Of a DNA stretch of 13,853 nt, positions 1 to 13,853 are shown piece after piece. The DNA comes from Pseudonocardiales bacterium (GTDB lineage: Bacteria > Actinomycetota > Actinomycetes > Mycobacteriales > Jatrophihabitantaceae), in contig JAOPWD010000338.1 of the NCBI GenBank assembly GCA_025965875.1, positions 1 to 13,853 of the forward strand, written 5' to 3'. Below the pieces are notes generated by a model. That model did not search any database. It was not told where the DNA came from and was given only the letters and a program-made list of their open reading frames with translations. Numbering within the stretch: the stretch's first letter is position 1; each line of letters begins with the position of its first letter. The position numbers and the translations under genes were made by a program.

Positions 1-69
1 GGTTGGCTTCACAAAGGAGTCGGTCGAGCCCTCGTTTTGTGCGGCGACCGCGCGGGCGGTGCGCTCCGC

Positions 70-111
70 TGAGCGTCTGGACTTGTATTGAGTAATACGG
101 CGACGGGTTAC
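70..111 (-). promoter_or_regulatory. Copy 4 of the conserved GTAACCC-N7-TATT promoter-like module, oriented leftward (its target gene would start at or beyond the window's left edge)
   Basis: The reverse complement of 70-111 reads GTAACCCgtcgccgTATTACTCAATACAAGTCCAGACGCTC. This nearly matches the site at 7336-7376 (GTAACCCgccgctcTATTAGTCAGTACAAGTCCAGATGCTC) over about 40 nt. Confidence 0.45.
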
Positions 112-179
112 AACATGAGCGCTGAAACAAATCCGGGAGCGTGAACATCGCAGGCAAGGTCACGGCGCTGCGCTCGTGC

Positions 180-193
180 GCGCGATATCGCGC
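180..193. repeat. Perfect 14-bp palindrome GCGCGATATCGCGC just 3' of the anti-sigma gene
   Basis: Checked base by base; the flanking positions 179 and 194 do not pair. There is no U-tract, so it is a weak terminator or protein-site candidate only. Confidence 0.3.
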
Positions 194-259
194 ACAGCGC
201 GCCGCGCTCGACAGACGCGAGCTGGGGTGACCGGAGTGGTCAGCAGGTGGCGGTCGCGG

Positions 260-931
260 TCAGGCGGCGAAGGTCGCGTCGGCGACGGGGGACCCTGTCG
301 GCGTGACGAGCTTGGCGCCCCGCAGATGGCCGACGTCCACGGAGCCGATGCTCTTGGCGAACTGTCCGGTCCCACCCTGGACGGTGAAGGTGCCGAAGGC
401 GACGGTCGAGCCGTCATCGACCTGGAGCATGCACTTGACTTTTCCGTTGTAGTTGGGGACAGCAACGTTCATGAACACCCAGGACGGGCTGCCGCGATAG
501 GCCACGATCTGCCCCAACACCTGGCCGTCGTCGGTCAGGAACGTTCCGGTGCGCAGCGCGTCGGCCTGCGGTACCTGCACGGCGCTGTGCGCCGGCGCCC
601 GGCTGGTCAGTGCCTCGGTAGCCGCAGCCGTTCCACCCACCAGCGCCACGACCGCGGCGGCGGCCAACAGCGCCGTCCGCGCTCTCGGTCGAGTTGCCGC
701 CCGGATCGGCGTCGGCTCCTGCCGTTGCTCTCCCTGCTTGGTCTGCTCGGACAGCTGCCGGAACAGGCCCTCGGTGAACGCGGTGCTCGGCTCGGCCTCA
801 CCCGGTCGGGCTGCTCGTAGGTCGATGGCGGCGCGCAGAATCTCGACGTCCTCGAGGCTGGCCCGGAACCGCTTCGGGCGCCGACCGGTGGCGATGGCGT
901 CGATGAAGGCGGACAGTTTGCGACCGGTCAT
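260..931 (-). CDS. Membrane-spanning anti-sigma factor. It has an N-terminal cytoplasmic sigma-binding region, one TM segment (ALLAAAAVVALVGG) and a C-terminal extracytoplasmic domain of about 115 aa.
   Basis: 223-aa ORF. Its ATG overlaps the stop of the upstream ECF sigma gene (ATGA at 928-931 on the minus strand), the classic sigma/anti-sigma arrangement. Architecture is read from the translation. GGAG lies about 8 nt upstream of the ATG. Confidence 0.75.
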   Translation of the reverse strand: MTGRKLSAFIDAIATGRRPKRFRASLEDVEILRAAIDLRAARPGEAEPSTAFTEGLFRQLSEQTKQGEQRQEPTPIRAATRPRARTALLAAAAVVALVGGTAAATEALTSRAPAHSAVQVPQADALRTGTFLTDDGQVLGQIVAYRGSPSWVFMNVAVPNYNGKVKCMLQVDDGSTVAFGTFTVQGGTGQFAKSIGSVDVGHLRGAKLVTPTGSPVADATFAA

Positions 932-1521
932 AGTTCCAACTCCACGGCGAGGGTCGCTGCCATTCGCAACGCGCGGTGCTGGAGCACTTTAGCGTTGCTG
1001 ACACTGATGTGCATGGCTTGCGCTGCTTCCTTGATCGAGCAGGCCTCCAGAAAACGCAGTTCGAGGATGCGCCGGTACCGCTCAGGGAGTCCACCCAGGA
1101 TCTTGCTCGCTCGGGCCGGCGCGTCGCTGGGCGGTTCGGACCCGGAGGGTTCGCTGAGGTAGCGGAGATCGGTGTCGGGGTCGATCATCGTCACCGGCTG
1201 ACCGAGGCGCCGCCGCCAGTGGGAGGCGAGCACGGTCTTGGCGGTGACCAGCAGGTAGGCCCGCACCTCGCCCTTTGACGATGACAACCGCAACGGCGGC
1301 AACGCCGTGCTGAAAACCTCCGAGGTGAGGTCCTCGGCGTCAGCACGGTTCCCGACGCGGGCGTACATCAGGCGGTACAGCCGGTCGATGTTGTCCCGGT
1401 ACACCGACTCCCAGTCGGTGTACCCGTCGTCGTCAACCATGTGCAGATACGCGACGCGGCCACCGCTCAGCGCGGGTGGTGGCTGGGCGGTTCGTCTCGA
1501 GCATCGCGATGCATTAATCAT
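928..1521 (-). CDS. ECF-type RNA polymerase sigma-70 family factor
   Basis: The translation has a region-2-like segment (DWESVYRDNIDRLYRLMYARVGNRADAEDLTSEVF) and a region-4 HTH (LPERYRRILELRFLEACSIKEAAQAMHISVSNAKVLQHRALRMAA). The start is either ATG 1521, which could be leaderless because it abuts the promoter-like motif, or ATG 1441 (MVDDDGYTDW...). No clear SD at either. Confidence 0.85.
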   Translation of the reverse strand: MINASRCSRRTAQPPPALSGGRVAYLHMVDDDGYTDWESVYRDNIDRLYRLMYARVGNRADAEDLTSEVFSTALPPLRLSSSKGEVRAYLLVTAKTVLASHWRRRLGQPVTMIDPDTDLRYLSEPSGSEPPSDAPARASKILGGLPERYRRILELRFLEACSIKEAAQAMHISVSNAKVLQHRALRMAATLAVELEL

Positions 1522-1549
1522 GTCACCTAGGAATAGGAGGAGGGGTTAC
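1521..1549 (-). promoter_or_regulatory. Copy 2 of the GTAACCC-N7-TATT module, immediately upstream of the ECF sigma gene (candidate autoregulated promoter)
   Basis: The minus strand reads GTAACCCctcctccTATTcctagGTGACATG. GTAACCC is at 1549-1543 and TATT at 1535-1532. The -35-like element and the 7-nt spacing match the copies at 4560 and 7336. Confidence 0.5.
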
Positions 1550-2093
1550 ACCACGGCAGCCGGCGCTGAGTTCCAGTTCGCCTGCGGCTGCGTGTCACCG
1601 GTGCGGGCGGAGCCTGCGCGCATCAGCTCAACGGTGTCGGGTCTTGAGTTCGCGGCGGAGACCGCCTGCGCCCGTCGAGCCGAGGACATCCCGACGATCA
1701 TCGCGACCTGATCGTGATCAGAGTGGCCTCGACAATCAAGGCCAGGGTGCCCACCCAGTCGGAGGCACTGGAAGCAATAGGCGTCGCCGCGGCAGCTGTC
1801 CGGCGGCGCGTCGGCCCGCTCGGGCCGCCACTGGCCATGGCGATGACCATTGCCAGCGAACTACTGCACCCACTGCGCACATGATCAACGCGACCCGCCG
1901 CGGAACAACTCTGCGCTGAATCCATCGACAACGTGATGACGACGGCGACGCCGTGCGCACGAAGGCGTTTGTCACCGCTGGCGAGCCGCGGCCCCATCAT
2001 CACACTGTCGCCGTCGTCGTCACCGTGCCGCCCGATTCGCCCGACCTTCGTCCTCACACTGAACGTCGCCGTCGTCCTCATCCAGCGTGTCGG

Positions 2094-2708
2094 TCAGCAG
2101 TGGCGAGTAGGCCCGATACGCCATCCAAGGTCGGTGCTCTCGGGCTGGGTGGTGACGGCGATTAGCGGTGCGCGCCACAACGATCGTGGCTGGGCGTTGG
2201 CGTCCGAGTCTCCGGTCGCCCGCATGGTGGCCCGTAGCAACCTTGTCGAGATCGCCGCGAGGACGATTGCAATGGGAATCTCGCCGAACAGCGCGGTCAC
2301 GCTGCTCACGAGAAGGTCGCCGCCGCGATGCGCGGTAAGCAGGTCGAACCACGCGTCGCACATCAACAGCACGCTCGTGACCATCGCTGCCGGCAAGGCG
2401 ATTTGGCGCTGCTTCCACAGCGCCCATGCGGTGACCGAGAAGCAGCCGATGAGCACGACATCGAACCCGGTCCAGGTGAGCGTCCACGTGCCGACCACGT
2501 AGCGCTGCGGCAGCGTCGCGGCCAGTCCTACCGTCCACGGAATCATGCTGACGGCACAGGCCAGGAAGAAGAGCACTGTTCGACGGCGAGTAGCGACGCC
2601 GGGTTGGCCGGCTGGCTTTGCTCGCGGTACCGGGGCTGCACCGCGAGAGGGCCGCGACGGTTCGCTGCGGCTCCCTCGCAGCGTTGTGCTTGTGCTGCTC
2701 GCAGCCAT
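2094..2708 (-). CDS. Hypothetical integral membrane protein (about 4 predicted TM helices)
   Basis: ORF with four hydrophobic stretches (VLFFLACAVSMIPWTVGLAA; FDVVLIGCFSVTAWALW; AAMVTSVLLMCDAWFDLL; LFGEIPIAIVLAAISTRLL). GC3 is high from about codon 45 onward, so the true start may be GTG 2576 or ATG 2546 rather than 2708. No family recognised. Confidence 0.55.
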   Translation of the reverse strand: MAASSTSTTLRGSRSEPSRPSRGAAPVPRAKPAGQPGVATRRRTVLFFLACAVSMIPWTVGLAATLPQRYVVGTWTLTWTGFDVVLIGCFSVTAWALWKQRQIALPAAMVTSVLLMCDAWFDLLTAHRGGDLLVSSVTALFGEIPIAIVLAAISTRLLRATMRATGDSDANAQPRSLWRAPLIAVTTQPESTDLGWRIGPTRHC

Positions 2709-2966
2709 CTCGTCTGCCTCTCAGGTGTCCTGTTCGCGGGGGTCAGTAGCCGTAGCTCGTGCCGGGCGTGGTGGTCGCGCACGGTGCATCGATAGATAGG
2801 GCCTCGCGTTACATCGACGATTTAGCAGGCAGGAGTTGGCACGCGGGTAGTTCGTGTATCTCCGTCGCGTATCTGTCCACGACGGCTCACCGGAGTCGCT
2901 GGCGTCCCGGACTTTGGCGGGACGCGCCCCTCGCTCGGCGTCGCCACGCCTCGAAGGAGAAACATC

Positions 2967-3572
2967 ATGACGACGGACACCTCCGCTGTTCGGGCAGCAA
3001 AGCCCGACCAGTCCGCTGTGCCCGTCGGCGACTGGCGCGTCGACCCGGTGCGATCGCACGCATCGTTTACGGCACGCGTCGCCGGCAGGTCTGTTCGGGG
3101 TCGGTTGCCCTTGAGCGGAGCAGCGATCGTGACCGCTTCGGTCGAGGACTCAGCAGCACATCTGACTGCCATGACCAGCGAGGTGAGCACTGGGAATCGC
3201 ATGCTTGACCGGCTGCTCGCCGGTCCTGGCTTCCTAGACGTCGAGGATCACCCGGAGATCAACTTCCGGACGCAGATGCTGGTCTGCGTCCCGACCGGGT
3301 GGAGGGCCATCGGACACCTGCAGGTCAAGGGAACCGACCACCCGATCGTGTGTGAGCTCGACGCCGACCTGCGCCACCCGAAACCAGGAGAGGCTGGGGT
3401 GACGCTCACTGGCCGGTGGGTACTTGACTCGACCTGGATCACCAGCCAACGGATTCCGGCGATGTCCCGCCGCGTCGCCATGAGCTGCTCGGTCGTCCTC
3501 GACCGCGCGATCGAGGTCGCTGACAGCGAACTCGCATCTGCGCATAGATGGCTTTGCCGCAGATGCGACTAG
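2967..3572 (+). CDS. YceI-like family protein (polyisoprenoid-binding beta-barrel)
   Basis: SD GAAGGAG lies 6 nt upstream of the ATG. The translation carries the YceI signature: W.VDP..S...F......G..V.G......A....S..TG....D..L.....FLDVEDHPEI.F. Confidence 0.8.
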   Translation: MTTDTSAVRAAKPDQSAVPVGDWRVDPVRSHASFTARVAGRSVRGRLPLSGAAIVTASVEDSAAHLTAMTSEVSTGNRMLDRLLAGPGFLDVEDHPEINFRTQMLVCVPTGWRAIGHLQVKGTDHPIVCELDADLRHPKPGEAGVTLTGRWVLDSTWITSQRIPAMSRRVAMSCSVVLDRAIEVADSELASAHRWLCRRCD

Positions 3573-3988
3573 GGCATCGCCGAATGCTCGGGGCGGGGGC
3601 CGCTGGCAGTGACCCCTCCGGACAGCGCCCGACGGGCACCGCGACGTCCGATCATCGAACTGAGCCGGCCGAGCAGTCGGACGGAAGACCTGAGGATCCG
3701 GTCATTCGGCGGTGCTGGCGGGCGTTTCACAGTCTGACCCAGCTTGGCTTTCCGCGGCGCTTTCCGATCGTTCAGTTCCCGAACGTCCCGCTCCTGACGG
3801 CCTGGATCGCTGGCTGGGCTCAGCACTTCGTAGCCGCAGCTGGCCGTCCGTACCTGACCTCGGTGGTCTATCTGGCGATGACCGTGTGGGCCTACGAAGA
3901 ACTTGTCCACGGCTCCAACTGGCTCCGTCAGCTGCTCGGCGGTGCGTTCATGATCATCCTTACGGTCCGGGTTGCGTACGCCGTGTGA
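3548..3988 (+). CDS. Possible small membrane protein (start uncertain; only the C-terminal roughly 90 aa shows strong coding bias)
   Basis: High GC3 and hydrophobic segments (LLTAWIAGWAQHFVAAAG; LTSVVYLAMTVWAYEEL; LLGGAFMIILTVRVAYAV) in the 3' half. The N-terminal third has weaker GC3, so the start is probably internal. Confidence 0.35.
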   Translation: MALPQMRLGHRRMLGAGAAGSDPSGQRPTGTATSDHRTEPAEQSDGRPEDPVIRRCWRAFHSLTQLGFPRRFPIVQFPNVPLLTAWIAGWAQHFVAAAGRPYLTSVVYLAMTVWAYEELVHGSNWLRQLLGGAFMIILTVRVAYAV

Positions 3989-4074
3989 GGTCAACAATGA
4001 CGAGTGAGTTCGATCTGTCGCGGCGTGTAGCCATGCCGCGAGCAACGTGTCTTGGACAGTGGTAGCCGTAACTT

Positions 4075-4459
4075 TTCGTGTCCGCTGCCGGCCGTACAAG
4101 CCGCGAGCTTGGCGGCCCGCAGGTGGCCGACGTCGACGGAGCCGATGCTCTGGAGAATTGTCCGGTCCCGCCCTGGACGGTGAAGGTGCGAAGGCAACCG
4201 TCGAGCCGTCGTCGGCCTGAAGCATGCGTTTGACCGGGCCGTTGTAGTTGGGAACGTCAGCGTTCATGAACACCCAGGACGGGTTTCCGCGGTACGCGAC
4301 GATCTGGCCCAGGACCTGACCATCGGCGATTTGGAAGGTTCCGGTGCGCAGCGCGTTGAGGCCGCCTGACGCCCCGTATGACGTACTTCGTCGCACTCCC
4401 GGTCTCCCGGCGCGGGCACGCTGACGGGCACCGCCGCGGTTGACCGCGACTTCCTGCAC
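4075..4459 (-). pseudogene. Decayed paralogous fragment of the anti-sigma factor's C-terminal extracytoplasmic domain (frameshifted)
   Basis: Minus-frame translations show LNALRTGTFQIADGQVLGQIVAYRGNPSWVFMNADVPNYNGPVKRMLQADDGSTVAF (frame A) and SIGSVDVGHLRAAKLAAC (frame B). Both match DALRTGTFLTDDGQVLGQIVAYRGSPSWVFMNVAVPNYNGKVKCMLQVDDGSTVAF...SIGSVDVGHLRGAKLV of the 260-931 gene. The DNA aligns at about 80% to 300-560 with at least two 1-nt deletions (for example cttggcgaa versus ctggagaa). Confidence 0.7.
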
Positions 4460-4548
4460 ACCTCTCGTTCATCGTGATCCCGATCGAAGACGGATGAGAT
4501 CGGCGAGTCATGCAGTGCTGGCGAGCTATCGGCCAAACCAATGCGAGG

Positions 4549-4590
4549 AGTTACGCCGCGTAACCCGCGGCCGTATTAGTCAGCGAACAC
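4549..4590 (+). promoter_or_regulatory. Copy 1 of the GTAACCC-N7-TATTAGTCAG module upstream of the PAP2-like gene, overlapped by a 15-bp palindrome GTTACGCcGCGTAAC (4549-4563)
   Basis: GTAACCC at 4560-4566 and TATTAGTCAG at 4574-4583; the ATG is 80 nt downstream of GTAACC. The palindrome was verified base by base. Confidence 0.5.
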
Positions 4591-4639
4591 CAAGCGAGTT
4601 GCCACCTGTCTCCTATCCACAGCACAGAAAAGAGGACGC

Positions 4640-5953
4640 ATGCGCACAAGGACAAGAGCCCTCACCGGGCTCGCCGCCGCGGTGCTCGTCGGAACCACCG
4701 GAACCGCCTACGCAGCCACTCAGGGCGGCCATCCGTCTCCGGGCAAGGCGACTGGGTCATCGGCCCACGGATCCGGGCAGTCGATCGTCGACTGGAACCG
4801 GGAGCTCATTACTCTGCTCGGTACGCCGGGCCTGCAACCGGCGACGATCCAACCGACCCGAAGTTTCGCGATCCTGCAGGCGGCTGAGTACGACGCTGTG
4901 GTCTCCACGACACACATTGGCCAGCCGTACCTGTTCAAGGTGCCGGCGCCGCGCGACGCGCGAGCGGACGCGGCCGCCGACCAGGCAGCGCACGACGTAT
5001 TGACGGCGCTCTACCCGGCGGCTACGAGCCGCATCGACCAGCAACTCAGCACCGAACTCGCAGCGATCCCAGACAGCCATGGCAAACGCGACGGGCGCCG
5101 TGCCGGCGCGACGGTGGCACAGCTCCTCGTCGACCTACGGGCCTTCGACGGGTCCGCGGCGCCCCCGCCGCCGTTCGTCGCCGGCACCCAGCCGGGCGAC
5201 TACCGGCCGACACCGCCGAACTTCCCGACACCGGTCTTCACCGCCTGGGGCTCGATCACACCGTTCCTGCTCACCAGCGGTTCCCAGTTCCGTCCGACCG
5301 CGCCTGCGCCGGTGAGCAGCCCGACCTACGCCACCGCCCTGAACCAGGTCAAGGCCCTCGGGCAAGACAGCAGCACCGTCCGTACGGCTGATCAGACGAC
5401 GGTGGCCAAATTCTGGGGCTCGGCACCGATCTGGAACACCTGGAACCAGATCGCGCAAACGTTGCTGACTGACCAACACGCCAACCTGCAGCGCGCCGCC
5501 ACTGTGTTCGCGAACCTCGACCTCTCCGTCGCAGACGCGACCATCGCGCTGTACGACGCCAAGTACGTCTACCACGTGTGGCGACCAGTGACCGCGATCC
5601 GGGCCGGAAACAGCGGCTACAACTCGGACATCGCCTTCGACCCCAACGCACCCACCTGGAACCCGTTGGCGGTCACCGCCGCCGATCCTTCCTACCCCGG
5701 CGCACACAGCACGATCAGTGCAGCGGCCGCAACCGTGCTCGTCGCGTCCTTCGGCAAGCACCAACCGATCACGGTGACGTCGGACAAGATGCCCGGTGTG
5801 GTCCGCACCTTCACCAACGTGCAAGCAGCGGCGGTCGAGGCAGGATTTAGCCGCATCCTCGCCGGCCAGCACACCGCCCTCGAGGACCAAGCCGGCCAGC
5901 AGCTCGGCCACCGGGTCGCCACGTTCGCACTGCATGAACTAAACGCGGGTTAG
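4640..5953 (+). CDS. Secreted PAP2-superfamily / vanadium-dependent haloperoxidase-like (acid phosphatase-like) protein
   Basis: SD AAGAGGA. N-terminal signal peptide (MRTRTRALTGLAAAVLVGTTGTAYAA). Three PAP2 motifs are present: K-x6-RP (KYVYHVWRP), a PSGH-equivalent (SYPGAHS) and SR-x5-H (SRILAGQHTALED). The roughly 250-aa N-terminal extension is typical of bacterial V-HPO-like proteins. Confidence 0.85.
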   Translation: MRTRTRALTGLAAAVLVGTTGTAYAATQGGHPSPGKATGSSAHGSGQSIVDWNRELITLLGTPGLQPATIQPTRSFAILQAAEYDAVVSTTHIGQPYLFKVPAPRDARADAAADQAAHDVLTALYPAATSRIDQQLSTELAAIPDSHGKRDGRRAGATVAQLLVDLRAFDGSAAPPPPFVAGTQPGDYRPTPPNFPTPVFTAWGSITPFLLTSGSQFRPTAPAPVSSPTYATALNQVKALGQDSSTVRTADQTTVAKFWGSAPIWNTWNQIAQTLLTDQHANLQRAATVFANLDLSVADATIALYDAKYVYHVWRPVTAIRAGNSGYNSDIAFDPNAPTWNPLAVTAADPSYPGAHSTISAAAATVLVASFGKHQPITVTSDKMPGVVRTFTNVQAAAVEAGFSRILAGQHTALEDQAGQQLGHRVATFALHELNAG

Positions 5954-6035
5954 GCCGACATCGGCTGACCCACTTCCTGAGCGGGTGGGTGGGCCGCTGA
6001 TTCCTAGCAAGCCAACCAATTCACGAGGAGCAACT

Positions 6036-7175
6036 ATGAAATCCGTCACACGCCTGGCGTCCGCGCTTGCAGTAGTCGCCGCCGTCTCCGTCGGCCTGTC
6101 CGCAGCGGCGACACCCGCCTCCGCCAGGCAAGCCATCGCCAAGCGGGTTTACAAGCAGACCAACCTTGTCTCCGACATTCCCGGACTGGCCGCCCACACC
6201 GACCCCAACCTGCGTAACGCGTGGGGCACCTCCACCGGCCCGGGCCTGCCGATCTGGGTTTCCGACAATGCCTCCGGGGTCGCCACGCTCTACGACGGGC
6301 AGGGCAACCCGGAGCCGGGGTCAGGCGCCAAACAGCTTGTGGTCACGATCCCGGCGCCCCCGTCCGCAGGAACTGGAGCTGTCGGCGCACCGGACGGCAC
6401 GGTCTTCAACCCGACGGCCGGTGGCTTCGTTGTGTCGAAGGACGGCGTGTCCGACTCGGCCCGATTCCTGTTCGCTACCGAAGACGGCACGATCGCCGGC
6501 TGGTCGCCGAACGTCGACCCCACCCACGCGGTGCTCGCCGTGGACAGGTCGACCATGACCGATCCCGCCGGGGACGTCGGCGCGTTGTACAAGGGTCTCG
6601 CCCTCGTCAACACCGCAGCGGGCAAGTTCCTCTACGCCACCAACTTCCGGTTCGGCACCGTCGACGTGTTCGACAGCAACTTCGAATTGGTGACCAGTTT
6701 TACCGATCCCACCATCCGTGGCGGCTTCGCGCCCTTCGGCATTCACAACATCGGCGGCGACCTGTACGTCACCTTCGCCAAGCAAGATGCCGCCAAGCAC
6801 GATGACGCCGCGGGACCCGGCCGCGGCTTCGTGGACGTCTTCTCACCTAACGGAGATCTGTTGAAGCGGCTTGCCAGTCGAGGCACACTCAACTCACCCT
6901 GGGCCGTGACGCTCGCGCCGTCCACGTTCGGAGCGTTTGCTGGCGACATCCTTGTCGGCAACTTCGGTGATGGTCGGATCAATGCCTTCAAGCCGACGAC
7001 CGGTCGGTTCCTCGGTCAGCTTCGAAGCTCTCACGGCGCGATCACGATTCCTGGGCTCTGGGGCTTGCGATTCCCGACCGGCTCACTCAACGTCACGCCC
7101 AACGCGCTGTACTTCACCGCAGGGCCCAACGACGAGGCCGATGGGCTGTTAGGAGTCATCACGCCGGCCGCGTGA
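6036..7175 (+). CDS. Secreted beta-propeller protein (NHL/YncE-like repeats), probably TIGR03118 family
   Basis: SD GAGGAG precedes ATG 6036, and the signal peptide is MKSVTRLASALAVVAAVSVGLSAAATPASA. The listed ORF start at 5985 is probably an over-extension. The N-terminal NLVSD...DPNLRNAWG motif and repeated Gly/aromatic blade-like segments are visible. Family assignment is from memory only. Confidence 0.75.
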   Translation: MKSVTRLASALAVVAAVSVGLSAAATPASARQAIAKRVYKQTNLVSDIPGLAAHTDPNLRNAWGTSTGPGLPIWVSDNASGVATLYDGQGNPEPGSGAKQLVVTIPAPPSAGTGAVGAPDGTVFNPTAGGFVVSKDGVSDSARFLFATEDGTIAGWSPNVDPTHAVLAVDRSTMTDPAGDVGALYKGLALVNTAAGKFLYATNFRFGTVDVFDSNFELVTSFTDPTIRGGFAPFGIHNIGGDLYVTFAKQDAAKHDDAAGPGRGFVDVFSPNGDLLKRLASRGTLNSPWAVTLAPSTFGAFAGDILVGNFGDGRINAFKPTTGRFLGQLRSSHGAITIPGLWGLRFPTGSLNVTPNALYFTAGPNDEADGLLGVITPAA

Positions 7176-7188
7176 TCCGGGTCCAGCT

Positions 7189-7232
7189 GAATGTGCAGGG
7201 TGCGGCTGCTCAACGCCGCACTCTGCACATTC
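7189..7232 (+). terminator. Strong stem-loop 14 nt after the stop at 7175 (18-bp stem with one G-U, 8-nt loop); candidate intrinsic terminator without a U-tract
   Basis: GAATGTGCAGGGTGCGGC-tgctcaac-GCCGCACTCTGCACATTC; the pairing was checked position by position. Confidence 0.55.
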
Positions 7233-7335
7233 GTGGCGTCGAATCCCGCGGTCGAGCACTTCTGCCCAGCCCGATCTCAGTGGCGCGATATCGGCTGTCG
7301 CAGCCGGTTCCGGGTCACCCTCGGGACTCGGCCCT

Positions 7336-7391
7336 GTAACCCGCCGCTCTATTAGTCAGTACAAGTCCAGATGCTCCGCTCCGAGCGGGCG
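7336..7391 (+). promoter_or_regulatory. Copy 3 of the GTAACCC-N7-TATTAGTCAG module plus a conserved leader, upstream of the Lipoprotein_15-like gene
   Basis: GTAACCC at 7336-7342 and TATTAGTCAG at 7350-7359. The following TACAAGTCCAGATGCTC is shared with the left-edge copy. The ATG is 94 nt downstream. Confidence 0.5.
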
Positions 7392-7429
7392 GCCAGTCCC
7401 CGCCGCATCATTGCGAAGGAATTGAGGTC

Positions 7430-7957
7430 ATGATGATCAGAACCAAACGACTCCCGCTGTATGTCGCCGGCGGTGCTGGGCTCAGCGCGCTAGCGGTTCT
7501 CGGGCTCACGCTGAGCCAATCCGGCTCGAGTGCCGCCGGGGTGTCCGCGTCGCCGTCCTCGACCGTGGTTCAGACCCGCGCCAGCAACCTCGGGCAGATC
7601 CTCGTCGATGCCCAGGGCCGCACGATGTACCTGTTCGCCAAGGACACCGGCCCCGCCTCCACCTGCGTAGGCGCCTGCACGTCAGCCTGGCCACCGGTGC
7701 CAGTGTCGGCCGCGCCGCACGCCGCCGGCGGGGCGTCGGCTTCGGCACTCGGGGTGATCGGCTCGGGCAGTCGGCGGCAACTGAGCTACGCCGGGCACCC
7801 GGTGTACTACTTCGCCGGAGACAGCAAGGCCGGACAGACCCACGGCCAGGCGCTTAACGAGTTCGGCGCCAAATGGTACGTCCTGAACTCAGCAGGAGCC
7901 GCGATCGTCAAAGCCCCAAGCAACGCCGGCAACAGCGGCGGAGGGTACGGCTACTAG
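7430..7957 (+). CDS. Secreted protein with two copies of the Lipoprotein_15-type 'secreted repeat of unknown function' (COG4315-like)
   Basis: Signal peptide, no lipobox Cys. Two repeats are visible: LGQILVDAQGRTMYLFAKDTGPASTCVGACTSAWPPV and LSYAGHPVYYFAGDSKAGQTHGQALNEFGAKWYVL. A GAAGGA-like SD precedes the ATG. Confidence 0.8.
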   Translation: MMIRTKRLPLYVAGGAGLSALAVLGLTLSQSGSSAAGVSASPSSTVVQTRASNLGQILVDAQGRTMYLFAKDTGPASTCVGACTSAWPPVPVSAAPHAAGGASASALGVIGSGSRRQLSYAGHPVYYFAGDSKAGQTHGQALNEFGAKWYVLNSAGAAIVKAPSNAGNSGGGYGY

Positions 7958-7984
7958 CCAGCGGTCTCGACCACGGGCCAGGCC

Positions 7985-8227
7985 ATGACCTGGGCTCATG
8001 ATTCTCCGATCGGCCTCGCCGGCCGGATTGTCACGGCAACCCGGGGCGGGCAGGGCACCGGTGAGGTTGAGCTTCACATCCGGGGCGGCACGGAGGTTTT
8101 CATCGCCCACTCAAACGACCCACTGCCGGTCGGCGCCGCAGTGATCGTGTTTGCCACCTTGGGCCCGCGCACGCTCGTGGTCTTTCCCTGGGCTGACCCC
8201 CTCGACAACATCCTCGACCTGAAATAG
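7985..8227 (+). CDS. NfeD-like C-terminal OB-fold protein (short form without a TM segment)
   Basis: 80 aa. GRIVTATRGGQGTGEVELHIRGGTEVFIAHSNDPLPVGAAVIVFATLGPRTLVV matches the NfeD/YuaF beta-barrel pattern. It is in frame with the upstream gene and starts right after its TAG, so no upstream extension is possible. Sits directly upstream of the flotillin gene. Confidence 0.65.
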   Translation: MTWAHDSPIGLAGRIVTATRGGQGTGEVELHIRGGTEVFIAHSNDPLPVGAAVIVFATLGPRTLVVFPWADPLDNILDLK

Positions 8228-8257
8228 CCATCACCGAAAATAAGGAGTAGTACGCCA

Positions 8258-9592
8258 ATGTTCGGATACCACGTTCCCGCTCCAGACGAAGCGATGCTGA
8301 TCTCGGGAGGCAAGGCCACAGCCTCCGACGCACCGTTCAGGGTGGTCACCGGACGAGGCGCCTACGTCACGCCAATGTTTCGCAAGGCCCGATTCATCAC
8401 CTTGTCCATGTCCGAAGCCGAGGTCGAAGAGAACTGCGTGACGAAACAGGGCATCGCGCTCAAGGTCAAAGCCGTCATCGCCTTCAAGGTGGGCAACGAC
8501 ACGGAGTCCATCGTCAACGCCTCGCAGCGATTCCTATCCGACCAGTCCCAGATGTCGGTACTGACCGGCCGGATCTTCTCCGGCCACCTTCGCTCGATCA
8601 TCGGCTCGATGACCGTCGAGGAGATCGTCACCGAGCGGCAGAAGCTCGCGTCCGAGGTGCTGGACGGATCCAAGGGAGAGATGGCCAAGATCGGTCTCAC
8701 GGTCGACGCGCTCCAGATCCAGTCCATCGACGACATGGGTCTCGGATACGTCGCGGCCATGGCAGCGCCGCACAACGCGGCTATCCAGCGAGCAGCAAAG
8801 GTCGCAGCCTCCCAGGCCGATCAAGCCGCCGCCGAGGCCCACCAGGCGTCCCTGCGAGCTCAGGCCGAATACGCCCGCCAAACCGAAGTAGTCCAAGCCC
8901 AATACGCGGCCGACGTGGAAGCAGCGAAGTCCGCGGCTGCAGCTACGGCGGCGGCCGCCGCCCAGGCGTCGGCTCGAAACCTTGCCAACTACGAGGCCGA
9001 GACCGCAGTCACCCGGTCCAAAGCTGCCCAGATAGCCGCCGAAGCACAGCAGGAATCCGACCGCAACCAGGCCGACTTCGCCCGCCAAACCGCGGTCGCC
9101 AAAGCCACGTTCGCAGCCGAAACCCAAGCGGCTCAAGCCAAAGCAGACCAATCAGGACCCCTCGCCCACGCCGTGGCGCAGCAGCAGGTAATCGACGCCC
9201 AAACGGGCCTAGCCCAGCAGGAGGCCGAACTGACTCGCCAAACGCTGGTCTCCACCGTCGTACGCCCGGCCGAAGCCGACGCGGAGAGAGTCAAGATCCT
9301 GGCCGCAGCCGACGCCGAGCGGACCAAGATCTTGGCCGAGGCGGCCCAGTCGCACAACCGCGTTGCACTCGATCAACAACTCATCGCCCAACTCCCGCTC
9401 ATCGTGGAGAAGGCCGCACAGGGTTTGGCCGGCTCCCACCTGACCGTGCTCAACGGATCTGAGGGAGTTACGGAAGTCGTGTCATCGCTGGTCGGTCAAG
9501 GTCTGGCCATCCTGGACTCGATCCGGCATGGCGTAGCCGGCTCGAGTTCATCCAATGGCCTCCGACCGACCTCGCCGGCAATCAAGGCATGA
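8258..9592 (+). CDS. Flotillin-like SPFH/band-7 domain protein with an Ala/Gln/Glu-rich coiled-coil C-terminus
   Basis: Strong SD AAGGAG 7 nt upstream. The N-terminal PDEAMLISGGK...YVTPMFRKARFITLSMSEAEVEENCVTKQGIALKVKAVIAFKV aligns to the flotillin (FloT/YuaG-like) SPFH domain. An in-frame stop 33 nt upstream means the usual N-terminal membrane hairpin is absent. The C-terminal EA-rich repeat region is typical of flotillins. Confidence 0.85.
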   Translation: MFGYHVPAPDEAMLISGGKATASDAPFRVVTGRGAYVTPMFRKARFITLSMSEAEVEENCVTKQGIALKVKAVIAFKVGNDTESIVNASQRFLSDQSQMSVLTGRIFSGHLRSIIGSMTVEEIVTERQKLASEVLDGSKGEMAKIGLTVDALQIQSIDDMGLGYVAAMAAPHNAAIQRAAKVAASQADQAAAEAHQASLRAQAEYARQTEVVQAQYAADVEAAKSAAAATAAAAAQASARNLANYEAETAVTRSKAAQIAAEAQQESDRNQADFARQTAVAKATFAAETQAAQAKADQSGPLAHAVAQQQVIDAQTGLAQQEAELTRQTLVSTVVRPAEADAERVKILAAADAERTKILAEAAQSHNRVALDQQLIAQLPLIVEKAAQGLAGSHLTVLNGSEGVTEVVSSLVGQGLAILDSIRHGVAGSSSSNGLRPTSPAIKA

Positions 9593-9689
9593 TCCTCGGC
9601 TGGTGCCCCCATGATCATCTTGACGCTGATGAGACCTGATTCCGTCGATATGACCGCGAGTTTCGTCGGCTCGCTCACCAGGGTGTGTG

Positions 9690-10022
9690 CGGAAGTACCA
9701 GCGCGAGGGCGAGGAGCGGCGTGGTGATCGAGCTTTGCCTGCAGCTTTGATCTGAACAACGCAGAGTTCGCGCGAACGGGACACGACTGCCTGCGCTTGG
9801 GCGCCGTCCGGGTCAACGGGTGCTTGCCGACCTCGCCGCGCTCCAGCGCGTACGTGACACCCCGAACAACAGGCCGTGGTAGTTCGCCTTCGTCTTCAAC
9901 GAACGCGGCCAGCCGATCAGCCACGCCTTGACATCGTCTTCACTCACCTGGTCGATCCGCGTATCGAATGGCCGATAGAGCCCGCCACGGCCCTGAACCT
10001 GCACGGCACGCAGCGTCCGCAA
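9690..10022 (-). pseudogene. Remnant of a tyrosine recombinase/phage-type integrase (N-terminal core-binding region only, frameshifted and truncated)
   Basis: The minus frame gives IDQVSEDDVKAWLIGWPRSLKTKANYHGLLFGV. After a +1 shift it continues as VTYALERGEVGKHPLTRTAPKRRQS. Together these follow the integrase N-terminal pattern (...V..W......SL.P.T.....LL..VL..A...G.I..NP......PK.RR). No catalytic domain follows. Local GC is lower than the surroundings. Confidence 0.5.
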
Positions 10023-10046
10023 CTGCCCCTTGTCGTTGGTTCCAGA

Positions 10047-10492
10047 TCAACGTCTGGCCAGTCGGGCGAATGTCAGTGCTAGCAGGAACAGCGCGACATC
10101 GCGCATCAGGATGTCCCAGTAGCCACCGATCATGGCGAGGTTCACGATGATCCCGGCCAACCACAGCGCGACGAGGTAGCCGCCGCCGCGGGGCAGTAGC
10201 AGCACGACGATGCCGGCGAAGATCTCCACGGCGCCGACGACGTACATCGTCTGATGCACACCGTATGGAACGGGCTGAGCCATCGCTGCACATCCGGGGC
10301 GAGGTGCTTGTCCCAGTTCACTATCACGTGCGCGAACTTGTCCGCGCCGTACAGGATCGGCACCAGCGTGAAGCCGTGCCGCATCAGCCAGAACGCCTGG
10401 AACGTGGGGTCGGTCTTCAACCGCACTGCCGGCGATCGGTGATCGGGTTGCAGCGCCGCCTGAGTGGGTGCGGCGCTGGTCGTCATAGCCAT
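10047..10492 (-). pseudogene. DoxX-family membrane protein gene interrupted by a frameshift (or a sequencing error)
   Basis: The N-terminal part (FQAFWLMRHGFTLVPILYGADKFAHVIVNWDKHLAPDV) is in one frame. The C-terminal part (PVPYGVHQTMYVVGAVEIFAGIVVLLLPRGGGYLVALWLAGIIVNLAMIGGYWDILMRDVALFLLALTFARLA) is in the -1 frame. The switch lies near 10265-10290. The two parts together give a normal DoxX of about 140 aa. Confidence 0.6.
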
Positions 10493-10501
10493 CTCTTCTT
10501 G

Positions 10502-10563
10502 TATCGGATACTGTCGTGTACGTTAGACCGGTGACGCACTAACATAAACTCATGTGTCCGATA
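10502..10563. promoter_or_regulatory. Extended imperfect dyad (about 62 bp, centred 10532/10533) in the divergent intergenic region between the DoxX-like gene and the regulator gene; candidate operator
   Basis: The outer arms TATCGGA/TCCGATA (10502-10508, 10557-10563) and the inner arms GTTAG/CTAAC (10522-10526, 10539-10543) share one centre. 19 of 31 positions are symmetric overall. This is the most AT-rich stretch of the window. Confidence 0.35.
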
Positions 10564-10585
10564 GACTTTCGCCGGAGGAGCCACC

Positions 10586-11338
10586 ATGCGAGACATCGAC
10601 GGTGACGAGGGATTCGACCGGCAGGTCGGGCGAATCGCGGCACTGGCCGAGCCGATCCGACGTGCCCTGTACCGCTACATCAGCACCGAACCAGGTCCGG
10701 TCGGCCGCGAACAGGCGGCCTCGGCGGTCGGTGTGGCGACGCACGTAGCGAAGTTCCACCTCGACAAGCTCGAAGCCGGCGGGCTTCTCGACAGCGAGTA
10801 CAGCCGACCTCCGGGGCGGAGCGGACCCGGAGCGGGGCGTCCGGCCAAGCGCTATCGACGCTCCATTCGCGAGGTGTCGGTCAGCTTGCCTGAACGCCGC
10901 TACGACCTGGCCGGCCGCATCATGGCACAGGCGATCGACGCGGCTACTGACTCCGGGACACCCCTGGCCGACGCGTTGCACCAGGCTGCCGCCGAACACG
11001 GCCGCCACCTAGGCGATCGCGTCACCGCCCGCCTCGGTCGTCGCCGCAGCCCGGCAGCGTTCGGCCAGGCAATCAACGGCGTGCTGACTGACTACGGGTA
11101 CGAACCTCGCGCAGGCGATGACGACGCCGTCACCCTGACCAACTGTCCTTTTCATGCCTTGGCACAGGAACACACCGAACTGGTGTGCGGCATCAACCTC
11201 GACCTGTTCAGCGGCATGCTCGAGACGTGCGAGGGCAGCGGCATGCATGCCCGTCTCGAACCGGCTCCCGACCGATGCTGCGTCACGCTAAGCCGGGATC
11301 GACAGGCCGGGGCCCGCGCAGGACAGGCAACGGCATGA
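10586..11338 (+). CDS. Winged-helix (ArsR/HTH_20-like) transcriptional regulator with a Cys/His-containing C-terminal domain
   Basis: SD GGAGG 7 nt upstream. The N-terminal segment IAALAEPIRRALYRYIS...VGREQAASAVGVATHVAKFHLDKLEAGGLL is wHTH-like. The C-terminal segment LTNCPFHALAQEHTELVCGINLDLFSGMLETCEG carries C/H/C/C candidate ligand residues. Its stop overlaps the folE start (ATGA at 11335-11338). Confidence 0.75.
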   Translation: MRDIDGDEGFDRQVGRIAALAEPIRRALYRYISTEPGPVGREQAASAVGVATHVAKFHLDKLEAGGLLDSEYSRPPGRSGPGAGRPAKRYRRSIREVSVSLPERRYDLAGRIMAQAIDAATDSGTPLADALHQAAAEHGRHLGDRVTARLGRRRSPAAFGQAINGVLTDYGYEPRAGDDDAVTLTNCPFHALAQEHTELVCGINLDLFSGMLETCEGSGMHARLEPAPDRCCVTLSRDRQAGARAGQATA

Positions 11339-11967
11339 CCATGTTGCGGAGCTCGAGCATCGAGGCCGATATCGCACCGGCCCGCCCGTTACGTGTCGCG
11401 GCATCCGGCAGCACGGTCGATCTCGACGCGGCGGAGCGGGCTGCCGCCGCGCTGCTGCACGCGCTGGGAATCGACACCGACAGCGAAGGCCTTCGTGGTA
11501 CCCCGCGGAGGGTGGCTCGCGCTTACGCCGAGCTGTTCACCCCGAGCGCCTTCGATGTGACGACCTTCGCCAACGACGAGGGCTATGACGAGCTCGTGCT
11601 CGTGCGCGACATCCCGCTGCGCTCGGTGTGTGAACACCACCTGTTGCCGTTCATCGGCGTCGCACACGTCGGGTACCTGCCTGGGCAACGCATCGTCGGT
11701 CTGTCCAAGCTGGCGCGAGTGGTGGAGCACTTCGCAAGCCGACCGCAGGTGCAGGAACGGTTGACCAAACAGGTCGCGGACTGGCTTGACCAGTCTCTGC
11801 AGCCGGAGGGCGCTGGCGTCGTGATCGAGGCTGAGCACACCTGCATGACATTGCGAGGTGTACGTGCCTCGGGCACGTCGACGATCACGTCGGCCCTCGT
11901 GGGCACGGTCCGCGACGACCCGCGGACGCGACAGGAATTCCTCGCACTCACCAACCACCGCAGCTGA
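11335..11967 (+). CDS. folE: GTP cyclohydrolase I (type IA, FolE)
   Basis: The translation carries GLRGTPRRVARAYAELF...VCEHHLLPF.G.AHVGYLP...VGLSKLARVVEHFASRPQVQERLT.QVADWL...GVVIEAEHTCMTLRGV. These are diagnostic FolE motifs, including the Cys-His-His zinc site. The start is chosen at the ATG that overlaps the upstream stop, and the length of 210 aa is typical. Confidence 0.9.
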   Translation: MTMLRSSSIEADIAPARPLRVAASGSTVDLDAAERAAAALLHALGIDTDSEGLRGTPRRVARAYAELFTPSAFDVTTFANDEGYDELVLVRDIPLRSVCEHHLLPFIGVAHVGYLPGQRIVGLSKLARVVEHFASRPQVQERLTKQVADWLDQSLQPEGAGVVIEAEHTCMTLRGVRASGTSTITSALVGTVRDDPRTRQEFLALTNHRS

Positions 11968-11989
11968 CGGCAAGTCGGAGGAGACCGAC

Positions 11990-13246: not shown

Positions 13247-13662
13247 CGGAGGCCGGCAGGTGTCGACCCGACGGGGCGCCGCCCGCCACATACGCGCAGG
13301 CTTGAGGCTTGCGTTGGGCAGCATGCCGCAGCGGGCGCGGGGAGCGACCTGATCGCGCCGCAGCACAGTGCGGACCGACCGGCGCTAGCATGGATCTGTA
13401 CCGCCCCCACAAGGCGGGACGCTCGTCTTGCGACGAACTCGCGTGTGCGGTCGTCGATCCGCCCGTCAACCGGCGGCTGAGGGCGGCCGCAGTGGGCGGC
13501 CCGTCCGGTCCCGCGGTGTCGATCTCGCGGAGTTCGGTTGGGCCAGCAGCGTCTCGGAGCAGCCGCCCGGGGCTCTCTTGGCGGAACATTCATAGTCCGA
13601 CCGCGGGTATGTGTGCGGAATTCTCGCCCGGCCAGCGTGCCGGGCGTTCAGAGGAGGAGTCT

Positions 13663-13853
13663 GTGGCTCGACCAGGCCGGCGTCAGATGGGCGCTCGCCG
13701 TACCGCTTCCCGGAAGCAGCGACGCGTCCCCGCCCCCGAGGACGTCTTCTCGGTGCTCGCCCGCGCCGTGCGTGAGGTGGAAGCAGCTGTCCAGCGTCGC
13801 CGCGTGACACCCGCGGTGCGCACGAAGTTCCAGGTCGTCGCACTGCTTGCACG
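13663..13853 (+). CDS. 5' part of an unidentified protein-coding gene running off the window (GTG start)
   Basis: GAGGAGGAG at 13651-13659 precedes GTG 13663. The frame is open to the window end with high GC3 (about 80%) and a plausible composition (VARPGRRQMGARRTASRKQRRVPAPEDVFSVLARAVREVEAAVQRRRVTPAVRTKFQVVALLA). The antisense ORF 13466-13852 is Arg/Pro-rich junk. Confidence 0.35.
   Translation, partial: MARPGRRQMGARRTASRKQRRVPAPEDVFSVLARAVREVEAAVQRRRVTPAVRTKFQVVALLA

Follow-up and report, generated by a model that had tools for sequence, protein, structure and literature searches.

A Probable Autoregulated ECF Sigma/Anti-Sigma Module with an Unnamed Superoxide Dismutase-Like Ectodomain in an Uncultured Actinobacterium

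Introduction

Paired extracytoplasmic function (ECF) sigma and anti-sigma factors are the main one-step envelope signaling devices in Actinobacteria, with sensor domains that for the most part lack an explanation. What does such a pair perceive, how might it let its sigma factor go, and which genes does it serve? We address these questions in a 13,853-nt stretch of DNA from a Pseudonocardiales bacterium (GTDB family Jatrophihabitantaceae; GenBank assembly GCA_025965875.1, contig JAOPWD010000338.1, positions 1–13,853), called “the window” throughout. On its reverse strand, an ECF sigma factor gene (928..1521; 197 aa, Pfam Sigma70_r2 and Sigma70_r4_2) is followed by a gene for a single-pass membrane protein, the anti-sigma factor (260..931; 223 aa). 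We compared the window with related loci from metagenome-assembled genomes (MAGs), numbered L001 onward, and with the Streptomyces loci L028 (S. spiramyceticus), L029, L032, L033, and L034. The two genes probably form an autoregulated ECF sigma/single-pass anti-sigma module of an uncultured Jatrophihabitantaceae-like actinobacterium, with the sigma factor presumably released by proteolysis. The type of pair is familiar; new are the unclassified sigma-binding region, the unnamed superoxide dismutase (SOD)-like ectodomain family, and the unusual promoter layout.

A Coupled and Conserved Gene Pair

The two genes share four nucleotides: the forward-strand tcat at 928–931 reads ATGA on the reverse strand, with the anti-sigma ATG at 931–929 and the sigma TGA at 930–928. 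The anti-sigma gene has its Shine-Dalgarno (SD) sequence, GGAG, at 940..943 (reverse strand), in the terminal stretch of the sigma gene and 8 nt upstream of this overlap, and the ATGA or GTGA junction together with the upstream GGAG is kept in 20 of 21 related loci. The anti-sigma gene directly follows an ECF sigma gene 58–94% identical to the window sigma in 20 loci. These data show translational coupling between the sigma and anti-sigma genes, which always occur as a pair.

The identical 223-aa protein occurs on 13 contigs (several soil metagenomes and one NCBI MAG), and among named genomes the closest is a Jatrophihabitantaceae MAG, at 81% identity. Its 23 genome matches, every one a MAG, come from Jatrophihabitantaceae, Frankiales, Pseudonocardiales, Nocardioidaceae, and Acidimicrobiales. 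At E ≤ 1e-3 one search returned 531 relatives, of which the 120 that were listed had no name or were labeled hypothetical and had no Pfam domain; a second, filter-free profile search returned 927 cluster representatives, 279 of these below 1e-10. Across 98 full-length family members mean column identity is 70%, and conservation spans the whole protein, cytoplasmic part included. Given these 531 relatives or 927 representatives and this level of identity, the pair is not a chance reading of open reading frames (ORFs).

The sigma factor comprises an N-terminal extension (residues 1–27, 1441–1521), a sigma-2 domain (Pfam Sigma70_r2; residues 41–105, 1207–1401), and a sigma-4 domain (Pfam Sigma70_r4_2; residues 140–186, 964–1104), all on the reverse strand. 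Sigma70_r2 scores 37.8 bits (cut-off 24) and Sigma70_r4_2 47.2 bits (cut-off 25.7) in the 197-aa protein, and NCBIfam TIGR02937 (sigma70-ECF) 55 bits against a cut-off of 42.9; with these two domains alone, both above their family cut-offs, the protein is an ECF (group 4) member of the sigma-70 family. The best specific model is that of the BldN family (TIGR02952, ECF121), at 76.9 bits below its equivalog cut-off of 206.45, and the closest relative in the PDB is BldN (6dxo_A, from the RsbN–BldN complex; E 2e-11), with the alignment covering sigma-2 as well as sigma-4. The window sigma thus has BldN as its nearest relative, yet it is not a BldN-family member and belongs to no curated subgroup. 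An earlier reading made from the letters alone (hereafter the sequence-only reading) had called both ORFs, their ATGA overlap, and the ECF identity of the sigma factor; the first two are confirmed at 928..1521 and 260..931, and the third is borne out by the Pfam and NCBIfam matches. It had also named, as grounds for its refutation, a placement of the pair in a well-characterized ECF group with a known, different promoter consensus; by the Pfam and NCBIfam models the sigma falls into no such group, the best match being the BldN family at 77 bits against 206.

Public gene calls begin the sigma factor at Met28 (170 aa). We ruled out this start (1440), as the codon at that place is CTG, CTT, or CTC in L013, L014, L016, L020, and L023. 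The peptide YL(R/H)(V/L)VD is conserved immediately before the Met28 position, indels between that position and the ATG at 1521 come in multiples of three, and the ATG at 1521 is the sole start codon conserved across all 20 loci compared; in L013, L016, and L023 this upstream ATG is the only in-frame start before invariant sigma-2 sequence. Because the Met28 codon is lost in five loci while the peptide before it, the triplet phase of the indels, and the upstream ATG are kept, the 197-aa reading is right and the public 170-aa calls are probably too short.

A Single-Pass Anti-Sigma Factor Outside Class I

The anti-sigma factor begins with a cytoplasmic region of three predicted helices (residues 1–69, 725..931, reverse strand), presumably its sigma-binding part, followed by one hydrophobic stretch that forms the predicted transmembrane (TM) helix (residues 86–104, TALLAAAAVVALVGGTAAA, 620..676, reverse strand), assigned from hydropathy and flanking charges. 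This stretch is Ala/Gly-rich, averages 2.0 on the Kyte-Doolittle scale over 19 aa, and is immediately preceded by the basic RPRAR. Since its N-terminal flank of 16 residues contains five Lys or Arg and its C-terminal flank one, the protein should be oriented N-in/C-out by the positive-inside rule.

The N-terminal region carries the pattern SAFIDAIA-GRRPKRFRA...LRAARPG...F..LF..LS across the 98 members, and AlphaFold2 places its helices at residues 3–14, 26–40, and 50–69 with a pLDDT of ~60. Neither zf-HC2 nor RskA_N of Pfam is matched by the window protein or belongs to the 25 families hit most frequently across the 98 members, and at E ≤ 5 these members yielded nothing relevant for the cytoplasmic part. 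Residues 1–85 contain no Cys or His (zinc-binding forms carry H-x3-C-x2-C), and HHalign against the N-termini of zinc-finger anti-sigma factors (ZAS) gave a probability of 1.3%. The region thus falls outside the class I anti-sigma domain (the four-helix fold that includes zf-HC2/ZAS). A PDB sequence search found no match to RsbN (6dxo chain B) at E ≤ 10 or to any anti-sigma chain. Two further models, NCBIfam NF052375 (“anti-sigma factor”; 36 bits, cut-off 100) and PRK13920 (“putative anti-sigmaE protein”; 28.6 bits, cut-off 225), stay below their cut-offs for the window protein, as they do for the ZAS relatives (55–75 bits). The predicted three-helix count and the BldN-like partner recall RsbN (PMC6101532), though as a resemblance only. 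A seemingly natural sigma/anti-sigma fusion (P0193) proved to be a frameshift artefact.

Two statements of the sequence-only reading fare well here. The single TM segment corresponds to the stretch at residues 86–104, and the identification of the downstream protein as an anti-sigma factor is supported by its overlap with an ECF sigma gene in at least 20 loci, by the N-in single-pass topology, and by an ectodomain held in common with zf-HC2 anti-sigma factors.

An Extracytoplasmic Domain with a Superoxide Dismutase-Like Fold

The extracytoplasmic C-terminal domain (residues 122–223, 263..568, reverse strand) follows a juxtamembrane linker of ~17 aa. AlphaFold models residues ~122–223 as eight strands with a pLDDT of ~90, forming a β-barrel with a Cu,Zn-SOD-like fold; Foldseek ranks the Cu,Zn SOD family at the top, though with E-values of only ~1e-2; identity among the top hits is 8–16%. 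G140, W151, C167, G174, G180, G187, G189, and A217 are invariant. Over 253 copies of the ectodomain the conserved residues are glycines, Trp151, and Cys167, with Met154 kept nearly always, and no set of His or Asp residues is conserved among them, so that the SOD metal site is absent. Consistent with this, Pfam Sod_Cu finds no match even at E ≤ 5, no His or Asp is invariant, and the SOD ligand set (six His, one Asp) is missing. The ectodomain is thus shown to have a Cu,Zn-SOD/CCS-domain-II fold without SOD metal ligands, and as the fold alone is common to both, it is not a Cu,Zn SOD.

Sequence searches of Pfam and the PDB place the domain nowhere. The window anti-sigma protein matches no Pfam family at E ≤ 0.01, and at E ≤ 5 no family covers the ectodomain of the window protein, the 98 members, 23 isolated ectodomains, or 40 ZAS relatives; weak matches in these searches are single or inconsistent (RskA_C, DUF4307, EEP_ig-like, DUF4082). 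RskA_C (PF10099) reaches 16.3 bits against a gathering threshold of 29.4 (E 0.012) and appears in three of the 98 members, in none of the 40 ZAS relatives, and in none of the 23 isolated ectodomains. A PDB sequence search with the protein and two profiles gave no ectodomain match, and a literature search for an SOD-like anti-sigma domain found nothing relevant. The sequence-only reading could not place the domain in a named family, which still holds after profile searches (Pfam, PDB, sub-threshold NCBIfam), and all the C-terminal motifs it quoted are found, between residues 125 and 208. Its extent needs trimming: a C-terminal domain is present, but the structured part measures ~100 aa (residues ~122–223, after the linker) and not ~115. 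We infer that the ectodomain receives the signal.

That reading had further called the sensor domain “distinctive,” a word that has to be given up, as the domain is widespread on other actinobacterial anti-sigma factors and its SOD-like fold is recognizable. Of the 149 representatives listed, 33 combine this C-terminal half with a zinc-finger anti-sigma domain. HHalign aligns window-type with ZAS ectodomains at 99.9% (E 7e-36) and the ectodomain with a Streptomyces spiramyceticus protein at 99.1%, and an independent structure model of a ZAS ectodomain shows the same SOD-like fold. Such relatives, common in cultured Streptomyces and present in Pseudonocardiaceae, go by names such as “anti-sigma factor family protein” and “zf-HC2 domain-containing protein” (e.g., P0296, S. 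spiramyceticus), and their genes also sit directly behind ECF sigma genes. The ZAS systems resemble the window system in the TM-plus-barrel C-terminal half with its invariant Gly, Trp, and Cys pattern and in a -10 hexamer, CGTATY, near the sigma start. They differ in their partner sigmas, which are just 24–26% identical to the window sigma, in their promoter (GCAATCC-N17-CGTATY, of normal spacing), and in their neighbor, a cupredoxin lipoprotein instead of Lipoprotein_15. Specifically, a divergent gene of ~155–166 aa lies directly upstream of sigma in all five Streptomyces loci; its product matches cupredoxins in four of the five and carries the H...C-x4-H-x4-M type-1 copper ligand pattern in all five.

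The Streptomyces module has further regular features. The cupredoxin lipoprotein gene lies ~150–700 nt upstream of sigma on the opposite strand, a ~140-aa protein with four TM segments (4-TM) follows it in four of five loci (not L032), and GCAATCC-N16/17-CGTAYC promoters point in both directions. The 4-TM proteins upstream of sigma in window-type and in Streptomyces modules may be distantly related (HHalign 41%). We found no paper describing this module in a literature search for a Streptomyces ECF-cupredoxin system.

A Shared Motif and a Putative Regulon

A 45-nt inverted repeat (68–112/7335–7379, 84% complementary) led to a motif that would tie the pair to its neighbors. The repeat is made up of the two Lipoprotein_15 promoters, each with the initial ~25 nt of its leader (TATTACTCAGTACAAGTCCAGAyGCTC); conservation extends to L015. 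The 19-nt motif TGTAACCC-N5-C-N-TATT was scanned for as TGTAACCC-N7-TATT, two mismatches being the most allowed; the window contains five copies where 0.10 would be expected, a total that not one of 200 shuffles attained.

One copy, TGTAACCCCTCCTCCTATT (1550–1532, reverse strand), is followed by CCTAGGTGAC and the sigma ATG (1521–1519), with no SD sequence at a usable distance, and the same arrangement precedes sigma in 20 loci. Just downstream of the anti-sigma gene, TGTAACCCGTCGCCGTATT (94..112, reverse strand) points at a Lipoprotein_15 gene past the left end of the window, a gene seen in longer contigs that carry the identical anti-sigma protein (L024, L025, L027). A copy with two mismatches, TGTAACGCGAGGCCCTATC (2795..2813, reverse strand), lies 87 nt upstream of a gene for a 204-aa membrane protein (2094–2708, reverse strand) whose homologues follow a Lipoprotein_15 gene in L001, L002, L007, L017, and L019. 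On the forward strand, CGTAACCCGCGGCCGTATT (4559..4577, one mismatch) stands 63 nt upstream of a gene for a secreted, vanadium-haloperoxidase-like protein of the PAP2 superfamily (4640–5953; best PDB relative the vanadium-dependent iodoperoxidase 4cit, E 3e-19), after which comes a TIGR03118 family gene (5985–7175, forward strand; 364 bits), and TGTAACCCGCCGCTCTATT (7335..7353) stands 77 nt upstream of a second Lipoprotein_15 gene (7430–7957).

Each of the five sites is intergenic and directed toward a gene; GTAAC occurs six more times in the window, without TAT at columns 16–18 and, by our reading of the ORF table, within ORFs. In related loci the motif precedes sigma genes 21 times and Lipoprotein_15 genes in at least 11 loci, and it is also found before a 4-TM protein, TIGR03118-like proteins, a plastocyanin-like protein (L008), and a phosphoesterase. 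When scanned with the strict pattern, the PAP2 genes of L001, L002, L006, and L022 showed no motif ahead of them, and positions 1–3000 of the window contain no sigma-70-type promoter. This distribution is plausibly that of an autoregulated ECF regulon, and the suggestion of the sequence-only reading that the pair may control secreted-protein genes gains the backing of a common promoter-like motif. A literature search on PF03640/COG4315 returned nothing relevant.

We also considered a structured 5′ untranslated region for the Lipoprotein_15 gene and rejected it (leader fold z-score 0.22, not significant), and Rfam matched nothing in the whole window. Leaderless genes behind the motif in L013 (-4072) and L016 (-889) were likewise discarded: the L013 ORF ends after eight codons, and a proper SD sequence lies further downstream.

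Further motif copies attract attention beyond the window. In L004, TGTAACCCGCCCCCGTATC at 6617 (reverse strand) lies 110 nt upstream of a principal-sigma-like (HrdB-like) gene, which recalls ShbA-dependent hrdB transcription. In L013 (8690, forward strand) and L016 (4107, forward strand) a motif directly after the anti-sigma gene has, at column 29, the ATG of a zinc-finger anti-sigma-like ORF (MV-T/R-N/D-GKT...HIAICVTCAAHL...PPSGFEGRVL). L013 also holds a decayed second sigma/anti-sigma pair (1117–2144) with the same promoter layout.

Promoter Geometry

The layout before the sigma gene is peculiar, as its start codon comes 10 nt after TATT in the window and the -35-like GTAAC is only 7 bp from the apparent -10. 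We read CsTATT as the -10 element, which would give a nearly leaderless sigma mRNA (leader of 0–5 nt). This reading draws on several features of the alignments: information content peaks at motif columns 1–8, 14, and 16–19, with columns 20–30 holding only 0.2–0.7 bit each; GTAAC-N9-TAT is fixed among the sigma promoters, while the distance from TATT to GTGAC-ATG varies from -1 to +2; the only conserved sigma start lies 9–12 nt after TATT (columns 29–32) without a usable SD sequence; a second family, that of the ZAS-like protein after the anti-sigma gene in L013 and L016, also starts at column 29; no sigma-70-type promoter lies near sigma; and in the Streptomyces relatives the sigma ATG comes 6 nt behind GCAATCC-N17-CGTATY, which makes an ordinary leaderless ECF promoter with a -10 matching the CsTATT box in sequence. 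Reading AGGTGA, ahead of the sigma start codon, as an SD sequence was rejected (its spacing is 1–4 nt, and Acidimicrobiales loci have CGAG or GTGAG), as was a sigma-54-like -24/-12 reading, which has the wrong spacing; Actinobacteria, moreover, are not known to carry rpoN. Our proposal of a compressed promoter—TGTAACC 7 bp before CsTATT, transcription starting 5–10 nt after TATT, and a near-leaderless sigma mRNA—is a tentative one. It would place the -35-like box one helical turn closer than usual.

The same sites can be read by the rules of characterized ECF promoters, where spacers of 16–18 bp are generally assumed (PMC7776599): ECF40 promoters read CGTAAC-N16-CGATGA with the -10 at -12 to -7 (PMC12019637, PMC6338062), ECF16 promoters (T/C)GTAAC-N17-CGAA (PMC8315932), and SigD promoters, as quoted in PMC12019637, GTAAC-N17-18-CGAT. 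TGTAAC would then be the -35, the -10 would follow 16 bp on (columns 23–28), transcription would start near column 35, and TAT would be a conserved spacer element, a layout that we treat as possible but doubtful. Its geometry is identical to that of ShbA (CGTAAC-N16-CGATGA; PMC12019637), SigD (as quoted there), and ECF16 (PMC8315932); columns 23–28 offer the -10 candidates AGGTGA, CAGTAC, CGATGC, and CAGCGA, with CGATGC of site 2795 at the right place; conservation of the Lipoprotein_15 promoters continues to column 34; and individual spacer bases are known to matter in ECF promoters (Gaballa 2018, as cited in PMC12019637). However, under this layout the invariant sigma ATG would fall at -6 to -4 and thus beyond the transcript, although this upstream ATG is the only possible start before conserved sigma-2 sequence in L013, L016, and L023 and indels from it to sigma-2 come in threes. 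The column-29 start of the ZAS-like family is contrary to it as well, as are the 0.2–0.7 bit of each of columns 20–30 and a GTAAC-to-GTGAC spacing that varies over 3–4 nt while GTAAC-N9-TAT stays fixed.

A Model for Sigma Release and Its Rivals

We propose, as the probable course of events, that the helical N-terminal ~70 residues of the anti-sigma factor would hold the sigma factor at the membrane, that an envelope cue on the barrel (a ligand, a partner protein, or damage) would make the ectodomain a protease substrate, and that a site-2 protease would then cut in the Ala/Gly-rich TM helix, analogous to Rip1. The remaining stub would be degraded and the sigma factor freed to transcribe its own operon (positive feedback), the two Lipoprotein_15 genes, the membrane-protein gene, and the haloperoxidase-like/TIGR03118 operon. 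Rip1 is the site-2 protease that cuts RskA, RslA, and RsmA in Mycobacterium tuberculosis; the features of regulated intramembrane proteolysis seen here are the single-pass topology and the Ala/Gly-rich TM helix. Several points weigh against this model. Proteolytic activation is assumed purely by analogy; the V-C-L-V alternation opposite K-K-M-Q suggests that Cys167 is a buried core residue and not a sensor thiol; the YceI gene adjacent to the pair has no motif before it; and the 7-bp gap between the -35-like and -10-like boxes is without precedent among characterized ECF promoters.

The barrel might instead be a protein-docking module, as CCS domain II is, that binds a secreted or lipid-anchored product of its own regulon (Lipoprotein_15, or the cupredoxin lipoprotein in the Streptomyces ZAS systems), its occupancy protecting the anti-sigma factor from cleavage in an RseB–RseA or CseA-like negative feedback. 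We think this rather unlikely, although the ectodomain lacks any conserved His, Asp, or Met cluster for a metal or small-molecule site and each system has one conserved secreted partner gene (Lipoprotein_15 in at least 11 loci, the cupredoxin lipoprotein in four to five of five Streptomyces loci). The two presumed partners have unrelated folds despite the conserved barrel, and a β-sandwich resemblance does not carry function. A direct sensing of copper or an oxidant through Trp151, Cys167, and the near-invariant Met154, with a regulon that handles copper or hypohalous-acid envelope stress, seems improbable to us. Such a role would suit the SOD/CCS-like fold, the lone invariant extracytoplasmic Cys and the W-x-x-M found in both types of system, the type-1-copper cupredoxin genes beside ZAS systems, the genes behind the motif (plastocyanin-like in L008, vanadium-haloperoxidase-like in the window), and the response of GTAAC-type ECF16 systems to HOCl and metals (PMC8315932). 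Yet all SOD metal ligands are missing, strand alternation would assign Met154 to one face and both Cys167 and Trp151 to the other, hydrophobic one, a cupredoxin accompanies just one of ~20 loci of the window type, and only in the window does the haloperoxidase-like gene lie behind the motif. That the 223-aa protein is not an anti-sigma factor at all, but merely a co-transcribed envelope protein of the regulon, is very improbable: it would account for the absence of a recognizable anti-sigma domain and of sequence matches to RsbN or other anti-sigma chains, but not for the strict pairing and start/stop overlap with sigma, the strongly conserved cytoplasmic N-terminus, or the same ectodomain on class I zinc-finger anti-sigma domains elsewhere, and RsbN itself shows that anti-sigma domains can be without detectable relatives (PMC6101532).

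Other Features of the Window

A decayed second coding copy of the ectodomain, a pseudogene fragment, lies at 4104..4356 on the reverse strand, in ORF 3569..4459, and carries two frameshifts and a change of the invariant Cys to Arg. It was recognized by three-frame translation and from the direct repeats D1, D3, and D4, which are 82–94% identical in nucleotides to 307–561 at spacings of 3795, 3796, and 3797, and it is present without gaps in the independent assemblies L024 and L026. On another contig the same ectodomain remnant runs straight into Lipoprotein_15 sequence (P0196). ORF 1698–2081 (reverse strand) has a C-terminal part, SDWVGTLALIVEATLITI, that resembles the 4-TM protein upstream of sigma in L002, L005, and L010; those genes stand behind motifs of their own, and the window ORF has no motif and looks truncated or decayed. 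The YceI-like gene (2967–3572, forward strand) lies inside the cluster and adjoins the pair in L008–L011, L014, and L024. The PAP2 and TIGR03118 genes are adjacent also in L001 and in L006/L022. Further right (7985–9592, forward strand), a small NfeD-like ORF (a weak match) precedes a 444-aa Ala/Gln-rich protein with internal 86-nt repeats (8828–8913/9035–9120); the two may be a flotillin-type pair unrelated to the motif.

Implications

One unnamed barrel of ~100 aa is thus common to two unrelated kinds of anti-sigma factor, one known only from uncultured soil lineages and the other common in cultured Streptomyces, and it can now be defined as a family by its SOD-like fold and invariant Gly, Trp, and Cys residues. 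The Streptomyces versions, which sit beside a blue-copper lipoprotein, offer a tractable route to what the barrel senses. In the N-terminal region, partnered with a BldN-like sigma, the list of anti-sigma domains not of class I would gain another entry. Specialists may be surprised by one point only, the promoter geometry: if true, the compressed layout would require sigma-4 to sit elsewhere on the holoenzyme or a new reading of the -25 to -18 region, and it would challenge the fixed spacer rule used for ECF regulon prediction. Should none of these readings hold, there would still be a small, clean putative regulon whose secreted products (Lipoprotein_15, TIGR03118, haloperoxidase-like) answer to a defined regulator.

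Comparison with Known Systems

RskA, RslA, and RsmA of M. tuberculosis, the anti-sigma factors cut by Rip1, are like the window protein actinobacterial, single-pass, and equipped with small ectodomains; the window cluster differs in containing no protease gene. As the TM helix is Ala/Gly-rich, a cut there could expose an Ala-rich C-terminus, in line with the ClpX degron idea of bioRxiv 10.1101/491043. Compared with Cu,Zn SOD and CCS domain II, the window domain is shorter (~100 against ~150 aa) and has neither zinc nor electrostatic loops and none of the His/Asp ligands; the SOD likeness of the model is a fold resemblance, not demonstrated homology.

With ECF40 (M. tuberculosis and Corynebacterium glutamicum SigD, Streptomyces ShbA) and ECF16 (Caulobacter SigF, Brucella BcrS) the window system shares a (T/C)GTAAC -35-type box and, putatively, an autoregulated sigma (PMC6338062, PMC12019637, PMC8315932). 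ECF16 regulons include YceI-like proteins (PMC8315932) and a YceI gene lies in the window cluster, though here without the motif. In those groups 15–18 bp separate GTAAC from a CGAT or CGAA -10, whereas the strongly conserved CsTATT in the window is 7 bp away; a weak -10-like hexamer at N16 (CGATGC at 2795, AGGTGA at sigma) is incompatible with the conserved sigma start. Their anti-sigma factors, RsdA or 6-TM proteins of the NrsF type, also differ, and none of the models run (Pfam, NCBIfam) places the window sigma in ECF40 or ECF16.

The sigma factor also invites comparison with BldN–RsbN of S. venezuelae (PDB 6dxo; PMC6101532, PMC7826278). The sigma factors are alike in sigma-2 (31.7 bits) and in sigma-4, where the window has KVLQHRALR and BldN KTLQYRAVR, and both have an N-terminal extension, of 27 aa in the window and 86 aa in BldN. 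RsbN, too, crosses the membrane once, and its short cytoplasmic domain is helical and not of class I, with three helices, the number predicted for the window protein; in the RsbN type of domain α1–2 bind sigma-4 and α3 binds sigma-2 of a BldN-like sigma. The RsbN ectodomain is larger (272 against ~100 aa), and RsbN homologues are reported in Streptomyces only. Finally, BldN and RsbN govern chaplins and rodlins, whereas the putative regulon of the window comprises Lipoprotein_15 and other genes.

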